DNA from: a virus | Lineage: Duplodnaviria > Heunggongvirae > Uroviricota > Caudoviricetes | Strand: one strand, 5' to 3' | DNA length: 12,078 nucleotides | IMG/VR virus record: IMGVR_UViG_2537562220_000015 | Part shown: positions 2,852 through 12,078 of the stretch, piece after piece | Numbering within the stretch: the first letter of the stretch is position 1 | Layout of the letters: each line of letters opens with the position of its first letter | Notes under the pieces: model-generated | Told to the model about the DNA's origin: nothing | Seen by the model: only the letters and a program-made list of their open reading frames with translations | The model's database searches: none | Position numbers and translations under genes: made by a program

Positions 2852-3013
2852 ATGGCTATTTCAGTAAAGCCGGTATTGATAAGTGAGAAGCAAATGGAAG
2901 CGATAAAGAAAATTCAGGAAGAGCAGCGTAAAAAATCAGGAATTGGAGTAGCGCCAACTCTGCATGAAATTGCACGAGGGTTAATAGATAAGGCGCTGGC
3001 AGGCTGTATGTGA
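2852..3013 (+). CDS. Small hypothetical protein (53 aa), possibly a ribbon-helix-helix-like DNA-binding protein; first gene of the downstream operon
   Basis: ATG at 2852 is preceded by a strong SD (AAGGGGG, 2841-2847) at ~5-nt spacing; stop TGA at 3011-3013. It translates to MAISVKPVLISEKQMEAIKKIQEEQRKKSGIGVAPTLHEIARGLIDKALAGCM. It is absent from the ORF track, presumably because it is short. An AT-rich promoter-like region lies upstream (2760-2840). Confidence 0.4.
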   Translation: MAISVKPVLISEKQMEAIKKIQEEQRKKSGIGVAPTLHEIARGLIDKALAGCM

Positions 3014-3029
3014 AAATGGATGGCATCGC

Positions 3030-3491
3030 ATGGAACTAAAATTTATTGATAACCCTGTGCGATTACAGGCCTTTCTTAACGATCCTGGCAATACCGAAAA
3101 TATTGTTGAGCCGGGGCACACGTACTACATCAAGCCTGATGCGGTATATCTCGGCATCTACGAAGGATTGGTGTTGGCTGGCGTTCATGAAGTGCGTAAC
3201 TTCTGGCATAGCATTGTTGAATGCCATGCGGTGTACGACCCCGGATTCCGTGGTGAATATGCACTGCAAGGGCATCGGTTATTCTGCAAATGGCTTCTCG
3301 AAAACTCACCATTCCTTAACAGCATTACCATGGTTCCTGACACCACCAAATACGGACGGGCAATTATCCGTTTGCTTGGCGCTACCCGTGTTGGTCACCT
3401 TGATGATGCTTATATCAGATGTGGTAAACCCGTCGGCGTAACGCTTTATCAGTTAACTCGGCAACAATATAAGGAATTCAGCGAATGTTAA
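3030..3491 (+). CDS. Phage head-assembly/ejection-associated protein, P22 gp14-like (tentative)
   Basis: 153-aa ORF 16 nt after the small ORF. Its stop overlaps the start of the next gene. The assignment rests mainly on its position directly upstream of the gp7/gp20/gp16-like trio, which matches the P22 gene order 14-7-20-16. Confidence 0.5.
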   Translation: MELKFIDNPVRLQAFLNDPGNTENIVEPGHTYYIKPDAVYLGIYEGLVLAGVHEVRNFWHSIVECHAVYDPGFRGEYALQGHRLFCKWLLENSPFLNSITMVPDTTKYGRAIIRLLGATRVGHLDDAYIRCGKPVGVTLYQLTRQQYKEFSEC

Positions 3492-4162
3492 TTACCCACA
3501 TAGCTCATAAACATCTCAATCGTGCCGTATACGAAAAAGGCGGTGATGGTGGTGCCTCTAAAGCTCAGGCGAAGGCCCAGCAGCAGGCAATTGATTTGCA
3601 GCGCGAGCAGTGGAATACGGTGATGAATAATCTCAAGCCGTATGCAGAAGTCGGATTGCCTGCTTTACAACAACTACAAGGACTGATGACTCTGGAAGGG
3701 CAGAATAAAGCCGCGAATGATTTCTTTGGTTCTGGTTTATATAAAACACAGGCAGATCAGGCCCGTTATCAGAACCTTGTCTCAGCAGAAGCTACCGGGG
3801 GGCTTGGCTCAACAGCTACCAGTAACCAGTTATCTTCCATTGCGCCCATGCTTTATAACAATTGGCTTAGTGGGCAAATGCAAAATTATGGAAACCTGCT
3901 AAATGTCGGGATGAATGCGGCATCAGGGCAGGCAACAGCAGGGCAAAACTACGCCAATAATACCGGGCAACTCTTGCAGGGGCTTGGCGCTATTCGAGCA
4001 GGTCAGGCGCAGCAGCCATCCAGTCTTGCGCGTGGTATTGGTGGGGCGGCATCAGGCGCTTTAGCGGGTGCGCAACTTGGTTCCGTTGTTCCGGGTATAG
4101 GTAATGTCGCCGGGGCTATTGGTGGTGGGCTTATTGGTCTTGTTGGGGGGCTTGGATTCTAA
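3485..4162 (+). CDS. Phage ejection (DNA transfer/injection) protein, P22 gp7-like
   Basis: 225 aa, close to the size I recall for P22 gp7 (~229 aa). Gln/Ala-rich N-terminal part and Gly-rich hydrophobic C-terminus (GIGNVAGAIGGGLIGLVGGLGF). The stop overlaps the next start (TAATG). Confidence 0.65.
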   Translation: MLITHIAHKHLNRAVYEKGGDGGASKAQAKAQQQAIDLQREQWNTVMNNLKPYAEVGLPALQQLQGLMTLEGQNKAANDFFGSGLYKTQADQARYQNLVSAEATGGLGSTATSNQLSSIAPMLYNNWLSGQMQNYGNLLNVGMNAASGQATAGQNYANNTGQLLQGLGAIRAGQAQQPSSLARGIGGAASGALAGAQLGSVVPGIGNVAGAIGGGLIGLVGGLGF

Positions 4163-5583
4163 TGGCGACATGGCAACTTGGCGGGCTGCCTAGCATGGCA
4201 CCGCAAAATGATAATGCTCCTCGTTCTTCCGTTCCTCAGCCTGTGCAGTATCAGCAGCAGCCAAACGTAGGTTTAATGGCGCTACAGGGGCTAAGAGGCG
4301 TTGCTGAGATTAATCAGCAGGCACGTCAACAACAGCGTAAAGCAGAGTTTCAGAAAGCATATGCCGGGGCTTTTGAGTCTGGAGACAGAAACAAAATGCG
4401 CAGTCTTATTTCTGAGTATCCAGAAGAATTTGAAAGCGTTCAGAAAGGGATGGGCTTTATTGATGACGACCAGAGAAATTCTATTGGTCATCTTGCGACT
4501 AGTGCTCAAATCGCATCTTCGCTCGGAACTGGGGCATTTGGAAAATTCATAGCAGATAACGAAGATGAAATGCGTCGCTTGGGAATTTCTCCTGAGTCTG
4601 TTGCCGAAATGCATGTTAATGATCCACAGGGATTCCAGCGGCTTGCTGGTAGTATGGCACTGTTTTCTCTCGGTCATGAGAAGTATTTCGATATCAAAGA
4701 TCAAATGGAAGGTCGGGATATTGAGCGTGGCAAGTTGGCAGAAACAATCCGCAGCAATCAGGCTGGCGAAGCACTTCAGGCGAGAGGGCAGGATATTAGC
4801 CGAGCAAATGCGTTAACGTCAGCATATGCACCAACAGCAGCAATGCAGAATTACAATCAGTACGCTCAAATGTTAAAGGAGGATCCAGAGGGGGCGGCGG
4901 CATTTGCGGCAGCGGCTGGAATTAATACAAACGCCAAAAAATTAATGAGTGTTAGAGAAAACGATGATGGCACTGTCACAAAATACTACACAGACGGAAG
5001 TGAAGAGCAGGGAAAACTAACCCAGCCAATATCTGGAGATGGGTTTCGTCCAATAGCTTTGCCAACAGCCCAAAAGATCATGGAAAAGTCGCCAGAAGGG
5101 GCTAAAAAAGCTGCTGGATTTGCATACAGGGTTAGGGATGCTCTTGATTCAATAGATACACTGAAAGACCAGCTTAGCCCACAGCGAGTGGCGATCATTA
5201 ATAATGCTTTGGGTAATGGGACGTTGGCTAACTTAACGCTCAGCCCAACAGAGCAGCAATACGTTGTTAATGCTAATGACGCAATAATGGCAATACTCCG
5301 TCAGGAAACAGGGGCAGCTATCGTACCTGCTGAAATGTCAAAATATTATCAAATGTATTTCCCTCAGCCTGGCGACTCCACAAAAACCATTGATACCAAG
5401 CGCCTGAAGATGGAAAACCAGTTCAATTCGCTGAAAGCTGCTTCTGGTCGAGCTTATGATGCTTTGCGGGTTATTTCAGCAGTTGACAGAGGAACTTCTT
5501 CTTCGTCGCAGACATTGCCGCAATCTGAGCAGGTATCACAGCCAGCAGCCAGCAGTAACTTTTCTTCACTATGGGGTGATTAA
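4162..5583 (+). CDS. Phage ejection (DNA transfer) protein, P22 gp20-like
   Basis: 473 aa, close to the size I recall for P22 gp20 (~471 aa). Translationally coupled at both ends (TAATG overlaps at 4160-4164 and 5581-5585). Codon usage matches its neighbours. Confidence 0.65.
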   Translation: MATWQLGGLPSMAPQNDNAPRSSVPQPVQYQQQPNVGLMALQGLRGVAEINQQARQQQRKAEFQKAYAGAFESGDRNKMRSLISEYPEEFESVQKGMGFIDDDQRNSIGHLATSAQIASSLGTGAFGKFIADNEDEMRRLGISPESVAEMHVNDPQGFQRLAGSMALFSLGHEKYFDIKDQMEGRDIERGKLAETIRSNQAGEALQARGQDISRANALTSAYAPTAAMQNYNQYAQMLKEDPEGAAAFAAAAGINTNAKKLMSVRENDDGTVTKYYTDGSEEQGKLTQPISGDGFRPIALPTAQKIMEKSPEGAKKAAGFAYRVRDALDSIDTLKDQLSPQRVAIINNALGNGTLANLTLSPTEQQYVVNANDAIMAILRQETGAAIVPAEMSKYYQMYFPQPGDSTKTIDTKRLKMENQFNSLKAASGRAYDALRVISAVDRGTSSSSQTLPQSEQVSQPAASSNFSSLWGD

Positions 5584-7688
5584 TGGCTAAAGCATGGAAA
5601 GATGTTATCGCCTCTCCACAGTATCAGGCGTTAGCACCAGAACAAAAAGCGCAGGCTCAGGAGCAATACTTCAATGAAGTCGTTGCCCCGCAAGCCGGAG
5701 AAAGTGTAGAGCAGGCTAAGCAGGCTTTTTATGCTGCCTATCCACTACCATCAACGAATGAAATAGACCGAGCCCAATCAGCAACTCAAAATATTCAACA
5801 TACATCATCTGATAATTCTCTTGCGTCAGGGTATGCAAAGTTAGCTACTCAGCAAAGAGAGGGGCTTGAGCGTTCAGCAGAACAGGGAGCCAGCCTTGGG
5901 GCTGCGATGCGCGATGCTATAACAGGCGAAAGCCGAATGACTCCAGAGATGGAGAGACTGCAAAATGTCGACCTTGCCCCAGAGTTAACCTCACTCAGCA
6001 TGGATGCTCTAAAAGCTCGATGGTCTCAACTTTTCGGCTCTGACGCATCTCAGGAAAAGATTCTTCAGAGCATGGGAGCGAAATTAAGGCAGGATGAGAA
6101 GGGTAACACTATCGTTTCCCTGCCATCCGGTGATTATGCTCTGAACAAGCCGGGTTTATCGCCGCAAGACGTGGCATCGTTTCTGGCTAATGCGCTGGCG
6201 TTTACACCAGCGGGCAGGGCCGGAACGGTGCTGGGGGCCATAGGGAAATCAGCAGCTACAGATTTAGCACTACAGGGAGCCACCAGCCTCGCTGGTGGAG
6301 AAGATATTGATCCGTTACAAACGGTAATTTCTGCTGGCATTGGTGGTATTGGTAAGGGGCTGGAAAATACAGCGAGTGCGGTTTCGAGGGCTGTTCGTGG
6401 TGATATGTCGCCTGAAGCAAAGGCTGCTGTCGACTTTGCATCGGAAAGAAATCTGCCGTTAATGACCAGTGACATGCTGAAAGATAAAACCTTTATGCAG
6501 AGTCAGGCTCAGACATTAGGCGAAAGAGTTCCTTTTTTTGGAACCGGTAAGAATCGGCTGAATCAACAACAAGCACGAGAAAATTTAGTCAGAACATTTA
6601 GCGATGGTCTGGGTGGCATTTCTGATAAACAGCTTTATGAATCTGCGACTAAAGGGCAACAAAAATTCATTGAGGCAGCAGGAAAGCGATATAACCGCAT
6701 AATTGACGCTATGGGGGATACCCCTGTCGATCTCTCAAACACGGTAAAAGCTATCGACAATCAGATTGCTGTGTTAAGCCGCCCGGGTAAATCTCAGGAT
6801 AGAGCCGCGGTAAAAGTCTTGCAGCAATTTAAAGACGATATCACCAGCGGACCAAATGACCTGCGTCTGGCGAGGGAAAACAGAACCGATCTTCGAAAGC
6901 GGTTTATGGCGTCATCTGACACTGTTGATAAAGATACGCTCCAGAAAGCCAGCGATATTATCTACAAGGCATATACGGCGGATATGAAAAAAGCCGTAGC
7001 CAAAAATCTTGGAGCAGACGAAGCCATTAATATGGCAAGGGTTGATCGCTCATGGTCTAAATTCAATGACATGATGGGAAGAACGCGCGTTCAAAAGGCA
7101 ATAGCCAGCGGCAAGGCCACGCCTGAGGATGTAACAAAACTCGTTTTTAGCCAAAGCCCATCAGAACGTTCTCAGCTTTACAGGCTTCTGGATGACAATG
7201 GTAGGCAAAACGCACGAGCAGCCATAGTTCAGAATGCTGTAGATAAGGCGACTGATCCGTCTGGAAATATCAGTGTTGAGAAGTTTATTAATGCGTTACA
7301 CCGGAACAGGAAGCAATCAGCAACTTTCTTTAAAGGCGTACATGGAAAGGAACTGGACGGCGTTATTAAATACCTCAACGATACAAGACACGCGGCAAAA
7401 GCGAACGTTCAAAACTTAAATGGTCAGCAGCTTTATGGATTGTTAGTTGGTGGTGGCATCATAAACGCAGCAGTATTAGCGGGGATGCTAAAAACGGCTG
7501 CGTTTGTTGTTCCTGCTGCTGGTGCCGTAGGCGGAGCAGCGAAGGCATACGAAAGCCCTGTTATACGAAATGCCTTGTTACGTCTGGCAAATACGCCAAA
7601 AGGTAGCACAGCATATGACAGAGCGATCAGTACGGTCACACAATCGCTCACCAGAGTCGCACAGGCATCACAAAAAGAAGCTCAATAA
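5583..7688 (+). CDS. Phage ejection (DNA transfer) protein, P22 gp16-like
   Basis: 701-aa ORF, last of the coupled gene set. It has a Gly/Ala-rich hydrophobic segment near the C-terminus (LLVGGGIINAAVLAGMLKTAAFVVPAAGAVGGAAKA). Its position after the gp7/gp20-like genes matches the P22 order. Confidence 0.65.
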   Translation: MAKAWKDVIASPQYQALAPEQKAQAQEQYFNEVVAPQAGESVEQAKQAFYAAYPLPSTNEIDRAQSATQNIQHTSSDNSLASGYAKLATQQREGLERSAEQGASLGAAMRDAITGESRMTPEMERLQNVDLAPELTSLSMDALKARWSQLFGSDASQEKILQSMGAKLRQDEKGNTIVSLPSGDYALNKPGLSPQDVASFLANALAFTPAGRAGTVLGAIGKSAATDLALQGATSLAGGEDIDPLQTVISAGIGGIGKGLENTASAVSRAVRGDMSPEAKAAVDFASERNLPLMTSDMLKDKTFMQSQAQTLGERVPFFGTGKNRLNQQQARENLVRTFSDGLGGISDKQLYESATKGQQKFIEAAGKRYNRIIDAMGDTPVDLSNTVKAIDNQIAVLSRPGKSQDRAAVKVLQQFKDDITSGPNDLRLARENRTDLRKRFMASSDTVDKDTLQKASDIIYKAYTADMKKAVAKNLGADEAINMARVDRSWSKFNDMMGRTRVQKAIASGKATPEDVTKLVFSQSPSERSQLYRLLDDNGRQNARAAIVQNAVDKATDPSGNISVEKFINALHRNRKQSATFFKGVHGKELDGVIKYLNDTRHAAKANVQNLNGQQLYGLLVGGGIINAAVLAGMLKTAAFVVPAAGAVGGAAKAYESPVIRNALLRLANTPKGSTAYDRAISTVTQSLTRVAQASQKEAQ

Positions 7689-7706
7689 CTGGTAGCCATG
7701 GATGGC

Positions 7707-8321
7707 TTAGATATCTCTGCTGTCTCCATTAGGAAATAAAAGATAATATGGATTTGCCTTTCTTGCTCTCCTTGCTTCACCTGGATACCTGTTAGTCAGT
7801 AGTTTGCATAATGAGCAGAGAACAACACTCAAGAAAATTCCGAATGAGAAGATCAATATCTCACCAAAAATCAATGGCGATATTAAATTTTCAGGATTTA
7901 ATGATAAGTCAATGTTAAAAACATATTGAGCAATACCAGTAAGTATCAATAATATAATCCCTATGGAATACATTGCTGTTTCCCAAACATCAGACAGTCT
8001 ATTTTTGAATTGTTCGCTGGAGTAGTAGTTTGTTATAAAGTCAGAAAAATCACTCTCATATGCATCATCTTTAGGTGATGTTAGAAATCCTCTGTCTCTC
8101 CATACCTTCTCCCAATTAGTCGATTCTTTTTTTAAGGAAAAATAAATATGTATTGCCAAAAGGATAGCCAAAATTGGTGTTAGCTCTAAAAAATAGAATG
8201 TTATGGAATAAATAATACTGCCATGTTCAAACTCATCTGGGACTATCATGTATGCACAAAAATAAATTGAAAAGTACACCATGCAGATAGTTAGCAATTC
8301 TTTAGTATCTTTTCTGCTCAC
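7707..8321 (-). CDS. AT-rich multi-pass inner-membrane protein; candidate superinfection-exclusion or abortive-infection effector
   Basis: 204-aa ORF with a GTG start at 8319-8321 preceded by a strong SD (AAAGGGGG on the coding strand, ~5-nt spacer). It has at least four hydrophobic helices and a ~70-residue charged loop. GC content is clearly lower than the flanking genes (roughly one third by eye versus about half). It is convergent with the ejection operon, 18 bp from its stop. Confidence 0.6.
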   Translation of the reverse strand: MSRKDTKELLTICMVYFSIYFCAYMIVPDEFEHGSIIYSITFYFLELTPILAILLAIHIYFSLKKESTNWEKVWRDRGFLTSPKDDAYESDFSDFITNYYSSEQFKNRLSDVWETAMYSIGIILLILTGIAQYVFNIDLSLNPENLISPLIFGEILIFSFGIFLSVVLCSLCKLLTNRYPGEARRARKANPYYLLFPNGDSRDI

Positions 8322-8538
8322 ACCAACCCCCTTTAGCGTTGTTTAGAATGGCAATCATCATATATCCAAGACATGGCATTTGGTACATAGCTTGGGTCGG
8401 GATTTCAAATCCGATCCCCGTTGATGGGGCCGTTACAGTACGCGCATATCCGCTTTATGTGAAACAGGAAGATTTTTCTGATATCACTGCCACAGCAAAA
8501 CACCAATTTCGTGACCAGTACGCGCGCGAGGGGTATCA

Positions 8539-8557
8539 GTTGCAAAAATTTTGCAAC
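8539..8557. promoter_or_regulatory. Near-perfect palindrome GTTGCAAAA-A-TTTTGCAAC (9-bp arms around one central base); candidate operator
   Basis: Read directly from the sequence. It is flanked on both sides by copies of the GACCAGTACGC(G/A)C(G/A)CG motif (8513-8528 and 8565-8580). Confidence 0.3.
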
Positions 8558-9066
8558 TACGTCCGACCAGTACGCACACGATGGCGGGGGATACCATGAA
8601 ACTGTTCTCTACACGAGACAGAGTGGTGGTGATGTGTTGATTATCGGCGTATATGCGCACAGGACGCGCTATGACGATGTTTTATGCGGGTACACCAATC
8701 ACATGTATCTGATGTGATAAATCGTGTTACATGACATCTCATGTTGTGCTGGTGGTTATCACGACGTTCTGAATCTGGCCTTTGCCTGATATTTTGCGAC
8801 AAGTACGCGCGCGTAGCATCGAAATTATCGGATGGCGTATGCTGCTGGCAATATGAAGACCGATAGTATTAACCGAAAAGCGATTAAGGAGTGCCAACTT
8901 TTCAGTAGAGAAACTAGCCAGCATAGGAAAATGTAGAAATTACCCAATTAATAGGTAAAAGTTATTGACACAGCCTGTAGTGGATAACGATATGAATAAA
9001 AACCACATATAGTGGTTTTTCGTGAGTGATGATAGTATCTATGTTAGTTTCCTAAGTAACTGTGCA

Positions 9067-9095
9067 TTGACATGTGGATAACTTCGGATAGAGTT
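9067..9095 (+). promoter_or_regulatory. Putative sigma70 promoter for the Abi_2 gene (TTGACA-N16/17-TAGAGT) with an embedded DnaA-box-like TGTGGATAA
   Basis: TTGACA at 9067-9072 and TAGAGT-like -10 around 9089-9095. TGTGGATAA (9073-9081) is the exact complement of the DnaA box consensus TTATNCACA. A similar TTGACA...GTGGATAAC module recurs at 8965-8988. Confidence 0.25.
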
Positions 9096-9190
9096 ACAGG
9101 CAACCGAGCCCGATCCTCTGTTTCTCCGCCGCCGATTTTAGGCATGTGAGTTTCACGGTCGGGCCTTTTATTATCTTTTGTTTCGCCACT

Positions 9191-10168
9191 ATGATTGCCG
9201 CAAAGCCTCATAAGGACTATCACGAATTGCTAGGATTGCTACTTGAACGTGGCATGATTATCAATGATCGAAATCGTGCGATACGTAAGCTGTCGCAGGT
9301 TGGATATTATCGATTGTCAGGTTTTTGGTACCCATCAAGAATTATTGCGACAACAGATAAAGGTCTTTCGTACAGAACAGACCGATTTCTTGCTGGTACC
9401 AGTTTCGAGAAGACGTACGATCTATATCTTTTTGACAAAAAACTGCGTCTTTTGATGATTGATGCTATCGAAAGAATAGAGATTCATGTTCGTTCAGTCA
9501 TCGCGCATGAGGTTGGTCGCAATGATCCACTTGCCTACATGTCATCAAAATACATTAATCCAAAATTCTCATCTGCCTTCGAGCATTGGGTGTATAAGCA
9601 AAAAGTAAAATTAGACGAAAGCAGAGATGACTGTATTGAATGGCATCGAAGCCAAGGCAAGGAGATTCCATTTTGGGTGGCGGTGGAGACCTGGGATTTT
9701 GGTCAGATGTCTAAATATTATGCGATGCTTAATGGTCATATGCATGGGAAAATTATACGTCGTTTTGGCATTGATAATAAGCAGACATTTGCAAAATGGT
9801 TGAAGTGCCTTAATCTCATAAGGAATCGTTGCGCTCACCATTCCAGAATATGGAATAGAAAGCATCCCCGAGTTCCAGTACCGGATAATGAATACTTTGA
9901 CGGACTTAATCTCCATCCAGAGAGTTGCGAGAGGATTTTTAGCGCGATCTGTATTATCTGGTACTTAGTTAAACGACTTGGTCCGGGATCAACATGGCTT
10001 CGGCAAATTGCAGACCTTATTGACTCTAAACCAAATGTTCCCGGATGTGGATATGATTCAATGGGTTTACCTGCTAAAGGATTCCCACGAGAGAGATTCT
10101 CTCAGGACTTAGGTTTTGTTATCGCCGACAACGACCCTGTAGCTGAAGGGCGGAAAGGGAGCGATTGA
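9191..10168 (+). CDS. Abi_2 family (AbiD/AbiF-like) abortive-infection protein with a HEPN-type Rx4H motif
   Basis: Contains NLIRNRCAHHSRIWNRK, the conserved Abi_2/HEPN signature as I recall it (R-x4-H within RNRCAH). The N-terminal region KDYHELLGLLLERGMIINDRNRAIRKLSQVGYYRLSGFWYP matches the AbiD-family N-terminal pattern. I prefer the ATG at 9191 (MIAAKPHKDY...) over the longer track ORF starting at 9146, whose 15 extra residues are hydrophobic and not family-like. Neither start has a clear SD. Confidence 0.7.
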   Translation: MIAAKPHKDYHELLGLLLERGMIINDRNRAIRKLSQVGYYRLSGFWYPSRIIATTDKGLSYRTDRFLAGTSFEKTYDLYLFDKKLRLLMIDAIERIEIHVRSVIAHEVGRNDPLAYMSSKYINPKFSSAFEHWVYKQKVKLDESRDDCIEWHRSQGKEIPFWVAVETWDFGQMSKYYAMLNGHMHGKIIRRFGIDNKQTFAKWLKCLNLIRNRCAHHSRIWNRKHPRVPVPDNEYFDGLNLHPESCERIFSAICIIWYLVKRLGPGSTWLRQIADLIDSKPNVPGCGYDSMGLPAKGFPRERFSQDLGFVIADNDPVAEGRKGSD

Positions 10169-10197
10169 GCGATAAATATCATTTATACACTGATCAA

Positions 10198-10638
10198 TTA
10201 CTGAAGCAGCGTATTGATTCTTTTAATATTGTTACCCTGACGCTTCCACGCGCTGTAAATGTCTTTATCCCACGCTTTACCAGCTTTTGTTTGGTAGCCT
10301 GCTTCATTGAGCCGTTCCGCTATCACACGCCCATTATCAAATCCCTGTCGGATGGTATCGGCAATGATCTTTATAACTGCCGTTTCGTTATATGGCTTTG
10401 GTGGGATGTTCGGCTTTCCGGCAATAAGCGACGCAGCGGCTTTTTCCATGCGCTCCACCAGCCCAAGCATTCGTGAATCAATAGACTTTTCCGGCTGTCC
10501 CAGCTTCATGCGAATCGCATCAACAAGCCAGGAGGTTTTATCCCCTCCAGAAGCGAGAACAGACCGATTAAACTCATCCTGCAATTCAGATGGGATGCGG
10601 AACGCGACCAGATTAGATTTGCTCATTGCAAAGACCAT
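10198..10638 (-). CDS. Ribbon-helix-helix (Arc/Mnt-like) transcriptional regulator with a C-terminal extension
   Basis: The N-terminus LVAFRIPSELQDEFNRSVLASGGDKTSWLVDAIRMKL follows the Arc/Mnt RHH pattern (beta-strand, helix, G-containing turn, helix). The ~90-residue C-terminal extension contains a GYQTKAGKAWDKDIY segment reminiscent of recombinase/regulator DNA-binding modules. It is convergent with the Abi_2 gene (29-bp gap). Confidence 0.6.
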   Translation of the reverse strand: MVFAMSKSNLVAFRIPSELQDEFNRSVLASGGDKTSWLVDAIRMKLGQPEKSIDSRMLGLVERMEKAAASLIAGKPNIPPKPYNETAVIKIIADTIRQGFDNGRVIAERLNEAGYQTKAGKAWDKDIYSAWKRQGNNIKRINTLLQ

Positions 10639-10657
10639 ATCAGTGAGTAATATCCAT

Positions 10658-10687
10658 ACAGTATACCACTGTATAACACTGTTATAC
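10658..10687. promoter_or_regulatory. Three tandem ~10-bp repeats (ACAGTATACC / ACTGTATAAC / ACTGTTATAC) in the promoter region of the RHH gene; candidate autoregulatory operator
   Basis: Read directly from the sequence, 20-50 bp upstream of the RHH start. RHH repressors typically bind tandem or inverted short repeats. Confidence 0.35.
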
Positions 10688-10740
10688 GCTCAAATATCAG
10701 CCAGAAAATAACGGACCAATCACAAAGCTATCGCTGTGTT

Positions 10741-10868
10741 GTTGGTTCAGAGCTGGGCTGTGTTGGTTCAAAATGAGTTGATGTTGGTTCAATATTTCAG
10801 AAAAAACACAATAAAAACAACGATCTTTACAAATTGAACCAACTGAACCAACTGAACCAACACCTTTT
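10741..10868. repeat. Iteron cluster 2: three spaced GTTGGTTCA copies (10741-10749, 10762-10770, 10783-10791), AT-rich spacer, three tandem TGAACCAAC copies (10835-10861). Region 10825-10868 is the exact reverse complement of 2286-2329
   Basis: Direct comparison: the reverse complement of 10825-10868 is aaaaggtgttggttcagttggttcagttggttcaatttgtaaag, identical to 2286-2329 (44/44). The whole cluster is organised as the mirror image of cluster 1. Confidence 0.75.
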
Positions 10869-10897
10869 TGCTTATCTATATAATCTGAGAGGCAGAA

Positions 10898-11185
10898 ATG
10901 ATAAGGGACAGGAAAGCTGAAGAACTGGAGTCAAAAGGGCTATACCGGAGAGCTGCCGCACGATGGGCAGAAGTCATGATGCTGGCAGATGGCGATAAAG
11001 AACGTGAACATGCAGCAAACAGACGCTCTGAATGTATCCGTAAGGCGGCACGCCCACCAGCAACTACAGACAGATTCGGAGATTTAAGACAGGCAGTTAA
11101 GCGGACTCATTCGGCTCTTGGTATGGATGAGGAAGCGAGAGGGTATTTCAGGCGTTATCGCGATAAAGATTGCCAGAGACAGTAA
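10898..11185 (+). CDS. PerC-family transcriptional regulator (PerC/Pch-like)
   Basis: 95-aa ORF with an SD (GAGAGG) 5-8 nt upstream. MIRDRKAEELESKGLYRRAAARWAEVM... resembles the N-terminal signature of PerC/Pch activators of EPEC/EHEC (a conserved ...ELE.KGL(Y/W)RRAA.RW.(E/D)VM motif, from memory). Confidence 0.6.
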   Translation: MIRDRKAEELESKGLYRRAAARWAEVMMLADGDKEREHAANRRSECIRKAARPPATTDRFGDLRQAVKRTHSALGMDEEARGYFRRYRDKDCQRQ

Positions 11186-11258
11186 TGCTCTCTCTGTTTT
11201 GGCAAATTACCCCTCACTTTGAAGGGATCGGAGCTATAAAAATGGTGTTATCCGGCTT

Positions 11259-11276
11259 CCTGCATTGCAGGTTTTC
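11259..11276 (+). terminator. Weak candidate intrinsic terminator downstream of the PerC-like gene
   Basis: Short hairpin CCTGC-att-GCAGG followed by TTTT (11272-11275). The stem is short, so this is tentative. Confidence 0.25.
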
Positions 11277-11667
11277 GAAAGAATCAATGGGTTAGGTTAT
11301 CGTGCAAATTTGCACTCTGCCAGCCAACGCAATTTCTCGTTGGCGGAAATATCAGGTATTTACTGAACGAACGGTCTACCCGCCTGTTCAACTACCAGTT
11401 GTACATGGCTGCTTTATGTGCAAATGGTGGTGAGAGAAAATTGTTTGGGGGTACTTTTGGGGGTATCTCCAAAGATGTAACTGGAAAATGTCTTTATATA
11501 TCAATGTATTTTTATTGTTTGTTTTGTTCCTATTATCGCCATTAAAATCAAAGAGTTACCCCATATTTAAATACACCACGTTTCCTCCTGTGCCGTATTT
11601 GTGCCATTGTAACCTTGGCAATTCATCAAAATACTGTTCTGACATCAGGCAGTGCAGGTGCAGACAT

Positions 11668-12078
11668 TTAAGCCAATTGCTGCCGCCATTCTTTGACGTA
11701 GTCAATCAGGGCGCGGAGCTTTGGTGCAATATTGCGACGCTGTGGGAAATACAGATAGAAGCCCGGAAATTGTGGAAGAAAGTCATCAAGCAGCGATACA
11801 AGCTTACCGCTTTCAATATATGGCCTGAAAGTTTCCTGAGTGGCAATTGTTATTCCTCCGCCGGCAAGAGCCAGCCTCAACATCAGACGCAGATCATTAG
11901 TCGTAATCTGCGGTTCAATCGCAAGGTCGAAAGTTCTCCCGTTTTCTTCAAATGGCCAGCGATAAGGCGCAACCTCCGGGGACTGACGCCAGCCGATACA
12001 CTTATGGGTATTTCCCCCGGAGGCGAGAAAGCGCTCTCCACGCCCGGCCGCAAGGATCAGGACGACGGGGGCAGGCAT
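11668..12078 (-). CDS. LysR-family transcriptional regulator, C-terminal substrate-binding portion (gene starts beyond the window end)
   Basis: ...FDLAIEPQITTNDLRLMLRLALAGGGITIATQETFRPYIESGKLVSLLDDFLPQFPGFYLYFPQRRNIAPKLRALIDYVKEW is a typical LysR C-terminal effector-domain pattern. The Met at the window edge is probably internal. It is likely a chromosomal core gene at the island boundary. Confidence 0.6.
   Translation of the reverse strand: MPAPVVLILAAGRGERFLASGGNTHKCIGWRQSPEVAPYRWPFEENGRTFDLAIEPQITTNDLRLMLRLALAGGGITIATQETFRPYIESGKLVSLLDDFLPQFPGFYLYFPQRRNIAPKLRALIDYVKEWRQQLA

Follow-up and report, generated by a model that had tools for sequence, protein, structure and literature searches.

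How is an abortive-infection RNase of the Abi_2 type kept silent in its host, and which part of the surrounding DNA is in charge of this restraint? The question is raised by a stretch of 12,078 nucleotides, termed the window in what follows, from the virus record IMGVR_UViG_2537562220_000015 of IMG/VR (Caudoviricetes), in which an abi gene at 9191-10168 stands convergent to a gene for a 146-aa protein. A sequence-only reading of this DNA had regarded the control of Abi_2 proteins as poorly understood, and had named both the neighbouring protein, taken for a ribbon-helix-helix (RHH) regulator, and a structured upstream non-coding region as candidate control elements. The first of these views is outdated, since AbiF was reported in 2025 to be a type III toxin-antitoxin (TA) system whose antitoxin is an RNA (PMC12373285; Zilberzwige-Tal et al. 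Cell 2025, cited in PMC12373285, PMC12737573 and PMC13064643). Here, the candidate upstream control element is pinned to a covarying RNA at 9100-9176, and we regard it as likely that the cassette at 8884-10227 constitutes a type III-like TA pair, composed of an AbiF-type toxin and a cis-encoded RNA that would serve as attenuator as well as antitoxin. The features concerned are the following:

8884-10227, + strand: variable cargo cassette (Abi module), replaced by other genes in E. coli M160133
8947-9021, + strand: two conserved blocks, ATTAATAGGTAAAA (8947-8961) and AAAACCACATATAGTGGTTTTT (9000-9021), from the enteric-subclade alignment
9067-9094, + strand: sigma-70-like promoter, TTGACA (9067-9072), 16 nt and TAGAGT (9089-9094), with 10 of 12 consensus matches
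9100-9176, + strand: conserved structured non-coding RNA (ncRNA), candidate AbiF antitoxin and attenuator, defined by covariance model R1, an RNAalifold consensus and covariation
9165-9181, + strand: U-rich tract CUUUUAUUAUCUUUUGU, directly after the closing helix P1 of this RNA and 26 nt before the ATG, read from the sequence
9191-10168, + strand: abi gene, encoding a 325-aa Abi_2/AbiD/AbiF HEPN protein, predicted RNase toxin
9821-9856, + strand: HEPN motif RNRCAHHSRIWN, from the translation

The open reading frame (ORF) 9146-10168 is intact and not a pseudogene, the product being full length against 560 homologs (E<=1e-10) with every invariant residue present, while its actual start is the ATG at 9191, as given by the RefSeq annotation and the homolog consensus MIAAKPHK. 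The AbiD/AbiF-like character and the Rx4H motif that had been read from the sequence were borne out by both the profile and the structure-prediction checks. The protein matches Pfam PF07751 (Abi_2) over profile positions 2-184 of 184 with 176.6 bits against a cut-off of 25.6 (E=8e-52), the AbiD profile of PADLOC (E=2.6e-57) and the PHROG family 2158, 'abortive infection resistance' (E=4.5e-56), and it is annotated in RefSeq as 'Abi family protein'. Its nearest homologs are enterobacterial and 65-74% identical, followed by a large set at 40-53%. In the PDB, the sole sequence match is PbAbiF (8VZ6; phmmer, E=6e-36, residues 4-301; 29% identity), and the AlphaFold2 (AF2) model, with a pLDDT of 90, has 8VZ6_A, the 'PbAbiF dimer bound to ncRNA', as its only significant match (E=3e-15, TM 0.75/0.81, 318 columns). 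Moreover, within the stretch R211-N-R-C-A-H216 encoded at 9821-9838, the R and H align with the catalytic R210 and H215 of PbAbiF, and R211, N212, A215, H216, H217, R219, W221 and N222 are invariant across 31 homologs. On account of these family, sequence and fold matches and of the intact invariant residues, the product is a bona fide, intact AbiD/AbiF-family HEPN protein, whose activity as an RNase toxin is predicted by analogy with its relatives.

A covarying RNA upstream of abi

The comparison set was constructed from 80 loci encoding Abi relatives, of which 82 upstream regions entered the block search, 73 distinct ones the promoter comparison and 65 sequences the structure alignment. By nhmmer, a conserved block of ~95 nt was detected directly upstream of abi in 74 of the 82 regions, at loci whose proteins are only 40-52% identical. 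The block is made up of a TTGACA box, a short leader CAAYnGnG, a hairpin and a pyrimidine- or U-rich tail CCUUCUUGUUU, the last of which precedes the start codon by 21-77 nt (median 33). TTGAC occurs at a constant 40-42 nt before P1 in 66 of the 73 distinct regions and within 60 nt in 67, and the -10 hexamer carries A2 and T6 in 61 of these 67. A Shine-Dalgarno (SD) core was found in only 12 of 74 loci, and none is obvious at abi.

In the window, P1 is formed by 9108-9115 with 9157-9164, followed by the internal loop C-U-C (9116-9118) and by the inner helices within 9119-9155, so that the RNA measures 57 nt from stem to stem. The RNAalifold consensus contains 16 pairs in two helices, namely P1 (GCCCGRY with RYCGGGC) and, beyond an internal loop C-Y-C/Y, a variable P2; the loop is bordered by invariant C-G and U-A pairs and by a conserved G-U (sometimes G-C) pair. 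Compensatory double changes are found at 12 of the 16 pairs, pairing is kept in 94.0% of cells versus 27-45% with slid partners, and the covariation score reaches 0.544 versus <=0.16 in the controls. Among 500 shuffles, none equalled the observed alignment on four of five measures, and one did so on the remaining measure, the number of pairs changed on both sides. Because of the abundant G-U pairs (e.g. GU:46 at columns 22/57), which are compatible with the abi strand only, the RNA is assigned to that strand. The enteric subclade is distinguished by a larger inner region bearing a small extra hairpin (GCC/GGC in the window; CCA/UGG, ACC/GGU and so on in relatives).

The covariance model R1 has a single match in the window, at 9100-9176 (52.8 bits, E=5e-15), and with filters off no further match in the window rose above noise. 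Of the 80 loci, 74 have one match each, always on the strand of abi, and it lies directly upstream of abi in all of them except L044. At this locus, which belongs to Candidatus Electronema, the RNA is located at 984-1046, ~3 kb upstream of the matched abi segment, and an insertion or a second gene may lie between them. In nine further enterobacterial loci, one R1 match precedes each Abi gene, both genes of a Proteus tandem pair included, and R1 has no match in three Abi-less sister elements. When IMG/VR was searched by the RNA pattern alone, an Abi gene was encountered 24-40 nt downstream in 12 of 14 viral-contig matches. Tandem Abi_2 genes (310 and 323 aa) are present in Proteus L098, and also in L099; the R1 RNAs of L098 lie at 5144-5219 (22.1 bits) and 6900-6973 (54.3 bits), and since each tandem gene has its own preceding RNA, a duplication of the whole RNA-toxin unit is suggested.

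Further upstream, ~45-120 nt before the RNA promoter, the blocks ATTAATAGGTAAAA and AAAACCACATATAGTGGTTTTT are kept in seven of seven aligned enteric-subclade Abi loci, whatever their neighbours, and are present in L094, which is devoid of a 146-aa-type neighbour. In the alignment of the seven enteric loci, no conserved ORF or helix was seen within 8947-9021. Several other candidates were rejected, namely small ORFs in 8947-9066, the reading frames of which are not conserved in the enteric alignment, a 'lactis-plasmid RNA' at 8974-9063 (18 bits versus a threshold of 70, E=5.6), the helices of which are not kept there, and a pairing of the conserved 5' leader with the U-rich tail, which displayed no covariation on inspection by eye.

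Characterised AbiF systems and a proposed mechanism

In the HEPN dimer, according to PMC12373285 and the reviews PMC12737573 and PMC13064643, each monomer is bound by a small RNA that is encoded just upstream of AbiF and blocks the RNase site. Two such toxins, from C. difficile and from a Prevotellaceae bacterium, are reported to be neutralised by their toxin-binding upstream ncRNA (PMC12373285, PMC12737573). For C. difficile, a terminator between RNA and toxin is described as limiting toxin transcription, and PbAbiF is described as inactivated by R210A together with H215A (PMC12373285); the inhibitory residues of its RNA, PbAbiFr, are given as C32 and U38 (PMC12737573).

Both characterised RNAs carry the Rfam abiF motif RF03085 (gathering score 37 bits), which scores 37.6 and 19.5 bits at the phiC2 locus and 58.5 bits at the PbAbiF locus, the latter recovered exactly from a metagenome (L103); these two loci served as positive controls. 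R1 gave no match on phiC2 or on 17 PbAbiF-type loci, and no other relevant Rfam family was found in the window or the homolog loci. On two human-gut phage contigs, R1 reaches 25 bits upstream of 30-35%-identical Abi genes, where RF03085 is silent. Judged from these searches, there are two AbiF-RNA classes, because neither model detects the RNAs of the other, and the class found here is divergent with the same overall layout. This layout comprises a promoter, a leader of a few nt, a GC-rich closing helix of 6-8 bp, an immediate U-tract and an ATG within ~40 nt, and in both classes the 5' side carries CCUCU and the 3' side a YCAA- or UYAYG-like string. The RNA of the window may be described as a putative remodelled homolog of abiF RNA, in which an inner helix would have been inserted and the 3' bulge shortened.

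Among the known systems, PbAbiF-AbiFr (PDB 8VZ6) shares with the system here the family, the fold and the catalytic residues, and also the succession of promoter, one short GC-closed hairpin with CCUCU, U-tract and ATG within 40 nt. Its RNA is a 37-nt Rfam abiF motif with a 6-7-nt 3' bulge, whereas the RNA here comprises 57 nt with an extra inner helix and a 3-nt/1-nt internal loop. At L103 (291-365), the single RF03085 motif occupies 309-345, with a TAnnTTTG-type box before it and CGUUUUAUUUUUAUACA plus the ATG directly after; if transcription starts near 302, as we presume, C32 and U38 would fall at the ends of the CAAAUGU 3' bulge.

AbiFCd-RCd22 of the C. difficile prophage phi027/phiC2 (PMC12373285) resembles the system here in its Abi_2 HEPN toxin with an RNxxxH motif, its mobile element and its upstream RNA, at 29% protein identity. 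Its small RNA is reported to be produced from its own promoter, with termination before the toxin gene and co-transcription by read-through (PMC12373285), while a promoter and a U-tract are predicted here. RCd22 contains two RF03085 motifs and a separate terminator hairpin, whereas the RNA here is one motif of the other class, whose closing helix is the putative terminator stem. The lactococcal AbiD, AbiD1 and AbiF belong to the same Pfam and PADLOC family, and their function or clonability is reported to require upstream sequence (PMC13064643); they differ in being plasmid-borne in Gram-positive hosts and only distantly related to the E. coli Abi. As to the classical type III systems (ToxIN, AbiQ, CptIN, TenpIN), in which an upstream RNA encoded in cis neutralises an RNase toxin and a terminator sets the RNA:toxin ratio, the same plan is proposed here, whereas their toxin fold is unrelated and their antitoxins consist of tandem repeats that the toxin processes, in contrast with the single copy in the window.

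RNA-protein binding, neutralisation, termination, toxicity and a phage trigger are all envisaged here by analogy with the two characterised homologs, and the cassette would operate as follows. From the sigma-70-like promoter at 9067-9094, taken to be constitutive, transcription would start at ~9101, and the first 65-80 nt would fold into a long hairpin with the GC-rich P1, the asymmetric internal loop with its invariant C-Y-C/Y and the variable inner helix. The U-rich tract right after P1, which separates the RNA from abi as a putative intrinsic terminator or attenuator, would end most transcripts so that the small RNA accumulates, and occasional read-through would yield an abi mRNA that has no obvious SD sequence. 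The 325-aa HEPN protein would dimerise, and one RNA per monomer would occlude the R211/H216 RNase site and so keep the toxin silent. Phage infection would lower the RNA:protein ratio or displace the RNA, and the freed RNase would cut cellular and phage RNA, leading to growth arrest and aborted infection. The result would be protection of the host population together with the satellite-like element that carries the cassette.

Several observations weigh against this TA assignment. RF03085 has no match in the window (E<=1), in 8300-9300 (E<=10), in L030 (E<=10) or in 16 loci at the gathering threshold, and because it misses the RNA here, homology to the characterised antitoxins has to be drawn from the layout and the short shared motifs. 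Nor does the RNA have anything that obviously corresponds to the 6-7-nt 3' bulge, and C32 and U38 of PbAbiFr, which our own positional mapping places in that bulge, have no clear counterpart. The U-tract is interrupted, and a terminator scan made no call. Taken alone, the window RNA is not unusually stable (z = -1.42, with 14 of 200 shuffles folding as well); this single-sequence thermodynamic signal is weak, and the support for the RNA is comparative. Finally, neither a second copy nor tandemly repeated antitoxin units of the ToxIN kind were found, there being one R1 match in the window and one per locus, and classical type III antitoxins are tandem repeats.

More tentatively, and with rather more doubt than confidence, the RNA at 9100-9176 might represent a second structural class of AbiF RNA, distributed over Gamma- and Betaproteobacteria, Desulfobacterota, cyanobacteria and some gut phage contigs, in which the Rfam abiF motif is replaced and the protein-binding hairpin is itself the terminator stem. 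If the two coincide in this way, toxin bound to the nascent RNA could directly tune the read-through into its own gene, and such an autoregulatory antitoxin-attenuator would be unlike both characterised systems.

AbiF is a proposed ancestor of Cas13, and its RNA a forerunner of the CRISPR RNA (crRNA). Both characterised AbiF RNAs fall into one Rfam class, and a second class that is strongly covarying and phylogenetically broad, with proteins ~29% identical, would reveal how much remodelling of the RNA is compatible with a retained protein fold. Such a class would also offer an E. coli-native system for genetic dissection of the contact between RNA and toxin, of the trigger and of the coupling to the terminator. 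The protein family, of which this is an annotated member, and the principle of RNA control are already known; what is new here is the RNA class, which is well supported, absent from Rfam 15 and unlike both characterised antitoxins, which occurs in a genetically tractable host, and which Zilberzwige-Tal et al. 2025 may already list. At present, genome annotation and defence finders report the protein only.

Alternative explanations and the convergent 146-aa gene

The upstream element could be a purely cis-acting leader, either an attenuator or a translation-control hairpin of the lactococcal abiD1 type, with no antitoxin acting in trans. Judged by its title, a study of Bidnenko et al. 2009 listed in PMC13064643 concerns a phage protein that activates translation of abiD1 mRNA. 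Such a leader would fit the position of P1 directly before the conserved U-rich tail, at a short distance from the start codon, and the scarcity of SD cores; furthermore, RCd22 is reported to work in cis as well, via premature termination (PMC12373285), and abiD1 to be weakly transcribed (PMC13064643). However, the invariant unpaired C-Y-C, the U-A and G-U pairs and the leader positions A3, A4 and G7 are conserved far beyond the needs of a terminator, and both characterised relatives are described as binding their RNA tightly (PMC12737573, PMC12373285). We therefore hold an exclusively cis-acting role to be unlikely; the leader and antitoxin roles are compatible and do not exclude each other.

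It is about equally unlikely that the cassette is chiefly an addiction or stabilisation module, which would maintain the integrative element by post-segregational killing and have no primary function in anti-phage defence. TA modules commonly stabilise mobile genetic elements, and the cassette does reside on one. Stabilisation has also been raised as a possibility for AbiFCd (PMC12373285). Against this stand its location in a swap-in/swap-out cargo slot next to a SieA-like exclusion gene, which is typical of defence genes, and the phage resistance through which AbiD, AbiD1 and AbiF are reported to have come to light (PMC13064643). In biochemical terms, the mechanism would not differ between the two roles.

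The partnership favoured by the sequence-only reading, in which an RHH protein represses or neutralises Abi within a two-protein defence module, concerns the following gene:

10198-10638, minus strand: putative DNA-binding protein of 146 aa, an element backbone gene convergent to abi and not part of the Abi system

The convergent orientation was correctly recognised, and the homolog alignment suggests a true start at Met 10626 (MSKSN...). The RHH identity fared less well, since the Pfam RHH models matched neither the 146-aa protein nor its 24 homologs (E<=5), and the AF2 monomer shows no strand in its N-terminus (pLDDT 46-62). This N-terminus aligns in register with P22 Arc (hhalign, E=0.0098) and Mnt (E=0.006), weakly and with a probability of 4-6%, and one source annotates the gene as 'Arc-like DNA binding domain protein'. 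The supposed ~90-aa C-terminal extension does exist as a C-terminal part, and it turned out to be a separate domain with a confident model (pLDDT ~90), in which sub-threshold similarity to a recombinase-like helix-turn-helix (HTH_62) was detected in 21 of 25 members. Neither Foldseek nor a PDB profile search gave a significant match for the 146-aa protein, the AF2 monomer of which is only half confident. Taken together, the protein is probably DNA-binding, and it may plausibly be of the RHH type.

Apart from the Arc and Mnt alignments, a functional pairing would be favoured by the convergent gene of 141-146 aa that comes after Abi orthologs of 65-74% identity in five genera, namely E. coli, Raoultella (L002), Klebsiella (L091), Edwardsiella (L097) and Proteus (L098). 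A neighbour homologous to the 146-aa protein of the window was confirmed in L002, L091 and L098 (the Proteus one being 141 aa long and in the same position), and the 141-aa gene of Edwardsiella had no tblastn match to the window. However, the convergent orientation precludes an operon, and the 146-aa gene is missing from 78 of the 80 Abi loci, being whole in L002 and present as a C-terminal remnant in L004. Abi and its RNA occur without it in L094-L096, and where the same RNA accompanies an E. coli Abi of 67% identity, the neighbour is an antiterminator-Q gene. The blocks ATTAATAGGTAAAA and AAAACCACATATAGTGGTTTTT likewise accompany abi and not the 146-aa gene. In E. coli, the 146-aa gene with the iterons is found in 334 of 5426 genomes versus 58 for the Abi region, which makes it ~6 times commoner; it belongs to the backbone beside the second iteron cluster in the DUF927-primase/PerC elements of E. 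coli, Salmonella and Klebsiella, and is kept there in Abi-less elements. Since a recombination breakpoint falls within its last 10 codons, the gene flanks the cargo slot. A conserved co-occurrence or co-orientation of the two genes was thus not found in the loci compared: they are convergent, adjacent within one element family, and each is found alone. Because each gene has its own distribution and the slot contents differ between related elements, the adjacency of the two genes reflects a cargo hotspot that ends in the last codons of the 146-aa gene. Control of Abi by the 146-aa protein is largely refuted by this distribution, and we consider the two-protein module very improbable. The cloning unit would be the promoter, the RNA and abi (~8884-10190), not abi with the neighbouring protein gene.

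That the conserved block is a DNA-level signal, a promoter or operator and not an RNA, is scarcely credible, for although it does contain a strongly conserved promoter, its 12 helical positions with compensatory double changes, its tolerance of G-U on one strand only and its helices that vary in length through insertion with pairing kept all speak for an RNA.

The integrative element and its cargo slot

An integrative element of ~18.5 kb, located in the E. coli chromosome beside paoD and a LysR pseudogene, is represented in the window by its right half. The element harbors genes for an integrase, an HTH protein, AntA/B, Ash, a TOPRIM-DUF927 primase, the P22-type gp14, gp7, gp20 and gp16, a 204-aa membrane protein, Abi, the 146-aa protein and PerC. 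Of 5426 complete E. coli genomes, 58 contain 80% or more of 7600-11300, at an identity of ~99.9%, and no deposited phage genome covers this region to >=80%. Further features of the element in the window are:

2286-2406 and 10736-10868, inverted: iteron clusters of the GTTGGTTCA type, 93% complementary over 55 nt
2852-3013: ORF for a hypothetical 53-aa protein (WP_001018524.1), between the first iteron cluster and gp14
8513-8532, 8565-8584 and 8798-8817: three direct repeats resembling GACCAGTACGCGCGCG, in the non-coding spacer 8322-8883
11668-12078, minus strand: LysR-family pseudogene with the N-terminus missing (as annotated by RefSeq in L001), marking the boundary of the element with the chromosome beside paoD

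The cargo slot was disclosed by comparison with E. coli M160133, which is 99% identical to the window over 7346-8883 and again over 10228-11250, and in which the 1344 bp between them (8884-10227) are swapped for an ImmA/IrrE peptidase gene and a 125-aa gene. At one chromosomal site in Klebsiella, the slot is occupied either by Abi or by a pair of genes for a 218-aa and a DprA-like protein, and small ORFs convergent to the 146-aa-type gene fill it in a Salmonella element. The hotspot, flanked by the 204-aa membrane gene on one side and the 146-aa gene on the other, corresponds to 8884-10227 in the window, 7702-9000 in L100 and 9434-10980 in L087. The alternative cargos, the ImmA/IrrE metallopeptidase with the 125-aa protein and the 218-aa protein with the 297-aa DprA-like (DNA_processg_A) protein, carry no defence-system annotation and could be candidate systems. 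Like the P2/P4 defence hotspots (Rousset et al. 2022, PMC9122126), this is a defined slot in a phage-related integrative element at which unrelated defence cassettes interchange; the element here is unlike P4 in its late genes, with no psu, delta or sid seen and P22-type ejection-protein genes instead.

Both genes at the slot lie between the iteron repeats, as the sequence-only reading had stated, one inverted cluster following closely on the primase gene and its counterpart adjoining the 146-aa gene. A duplicated arrangement of this kind is also found in the Salmonella element L083 (8668-8811 and 15384-15505). We take the paired clusters to be reminiscent of the P4 ori/crr. The spacer 8322-8883 belongs to the element backbone and is 99% identical in an Abi-less element; a tblastn search of 8322-9190 with neighbours from the sister elements revealed no credible decayed gene. 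The 53-aa ORF has no Pfam or PHROG match.

The element (3030-8321 in the window; 1590-19700 in L001) possesses a primase/integrase backbone without capsid, terminase or tail genes, together with a complete P22-type DNA-delivery cassette consisting of gp14 (DUF2824), gp7, gp20 and gp16. Literature searches on satellites equipped with ejection or tape-measure proteins of their own yielded nothing specific. After gp16, on the minus strand, follows the gene for the 204-aa membrane protein, which has a GC content of 33% and a weak SieA-like match (phrog_7745, E=4e-4), and the order of gp16 and a SieA-like gene is that of P22 16-sieA. Changes in gp16 and gp20 let P22 escape SieA (PMC10883804). In the sister elements, tape-measure genes are present instead, namely TMP_3 in Klebsiella, TAC with a lambda-type TMP in Proteus and a gene for a 989-aa protein in Salmonella.

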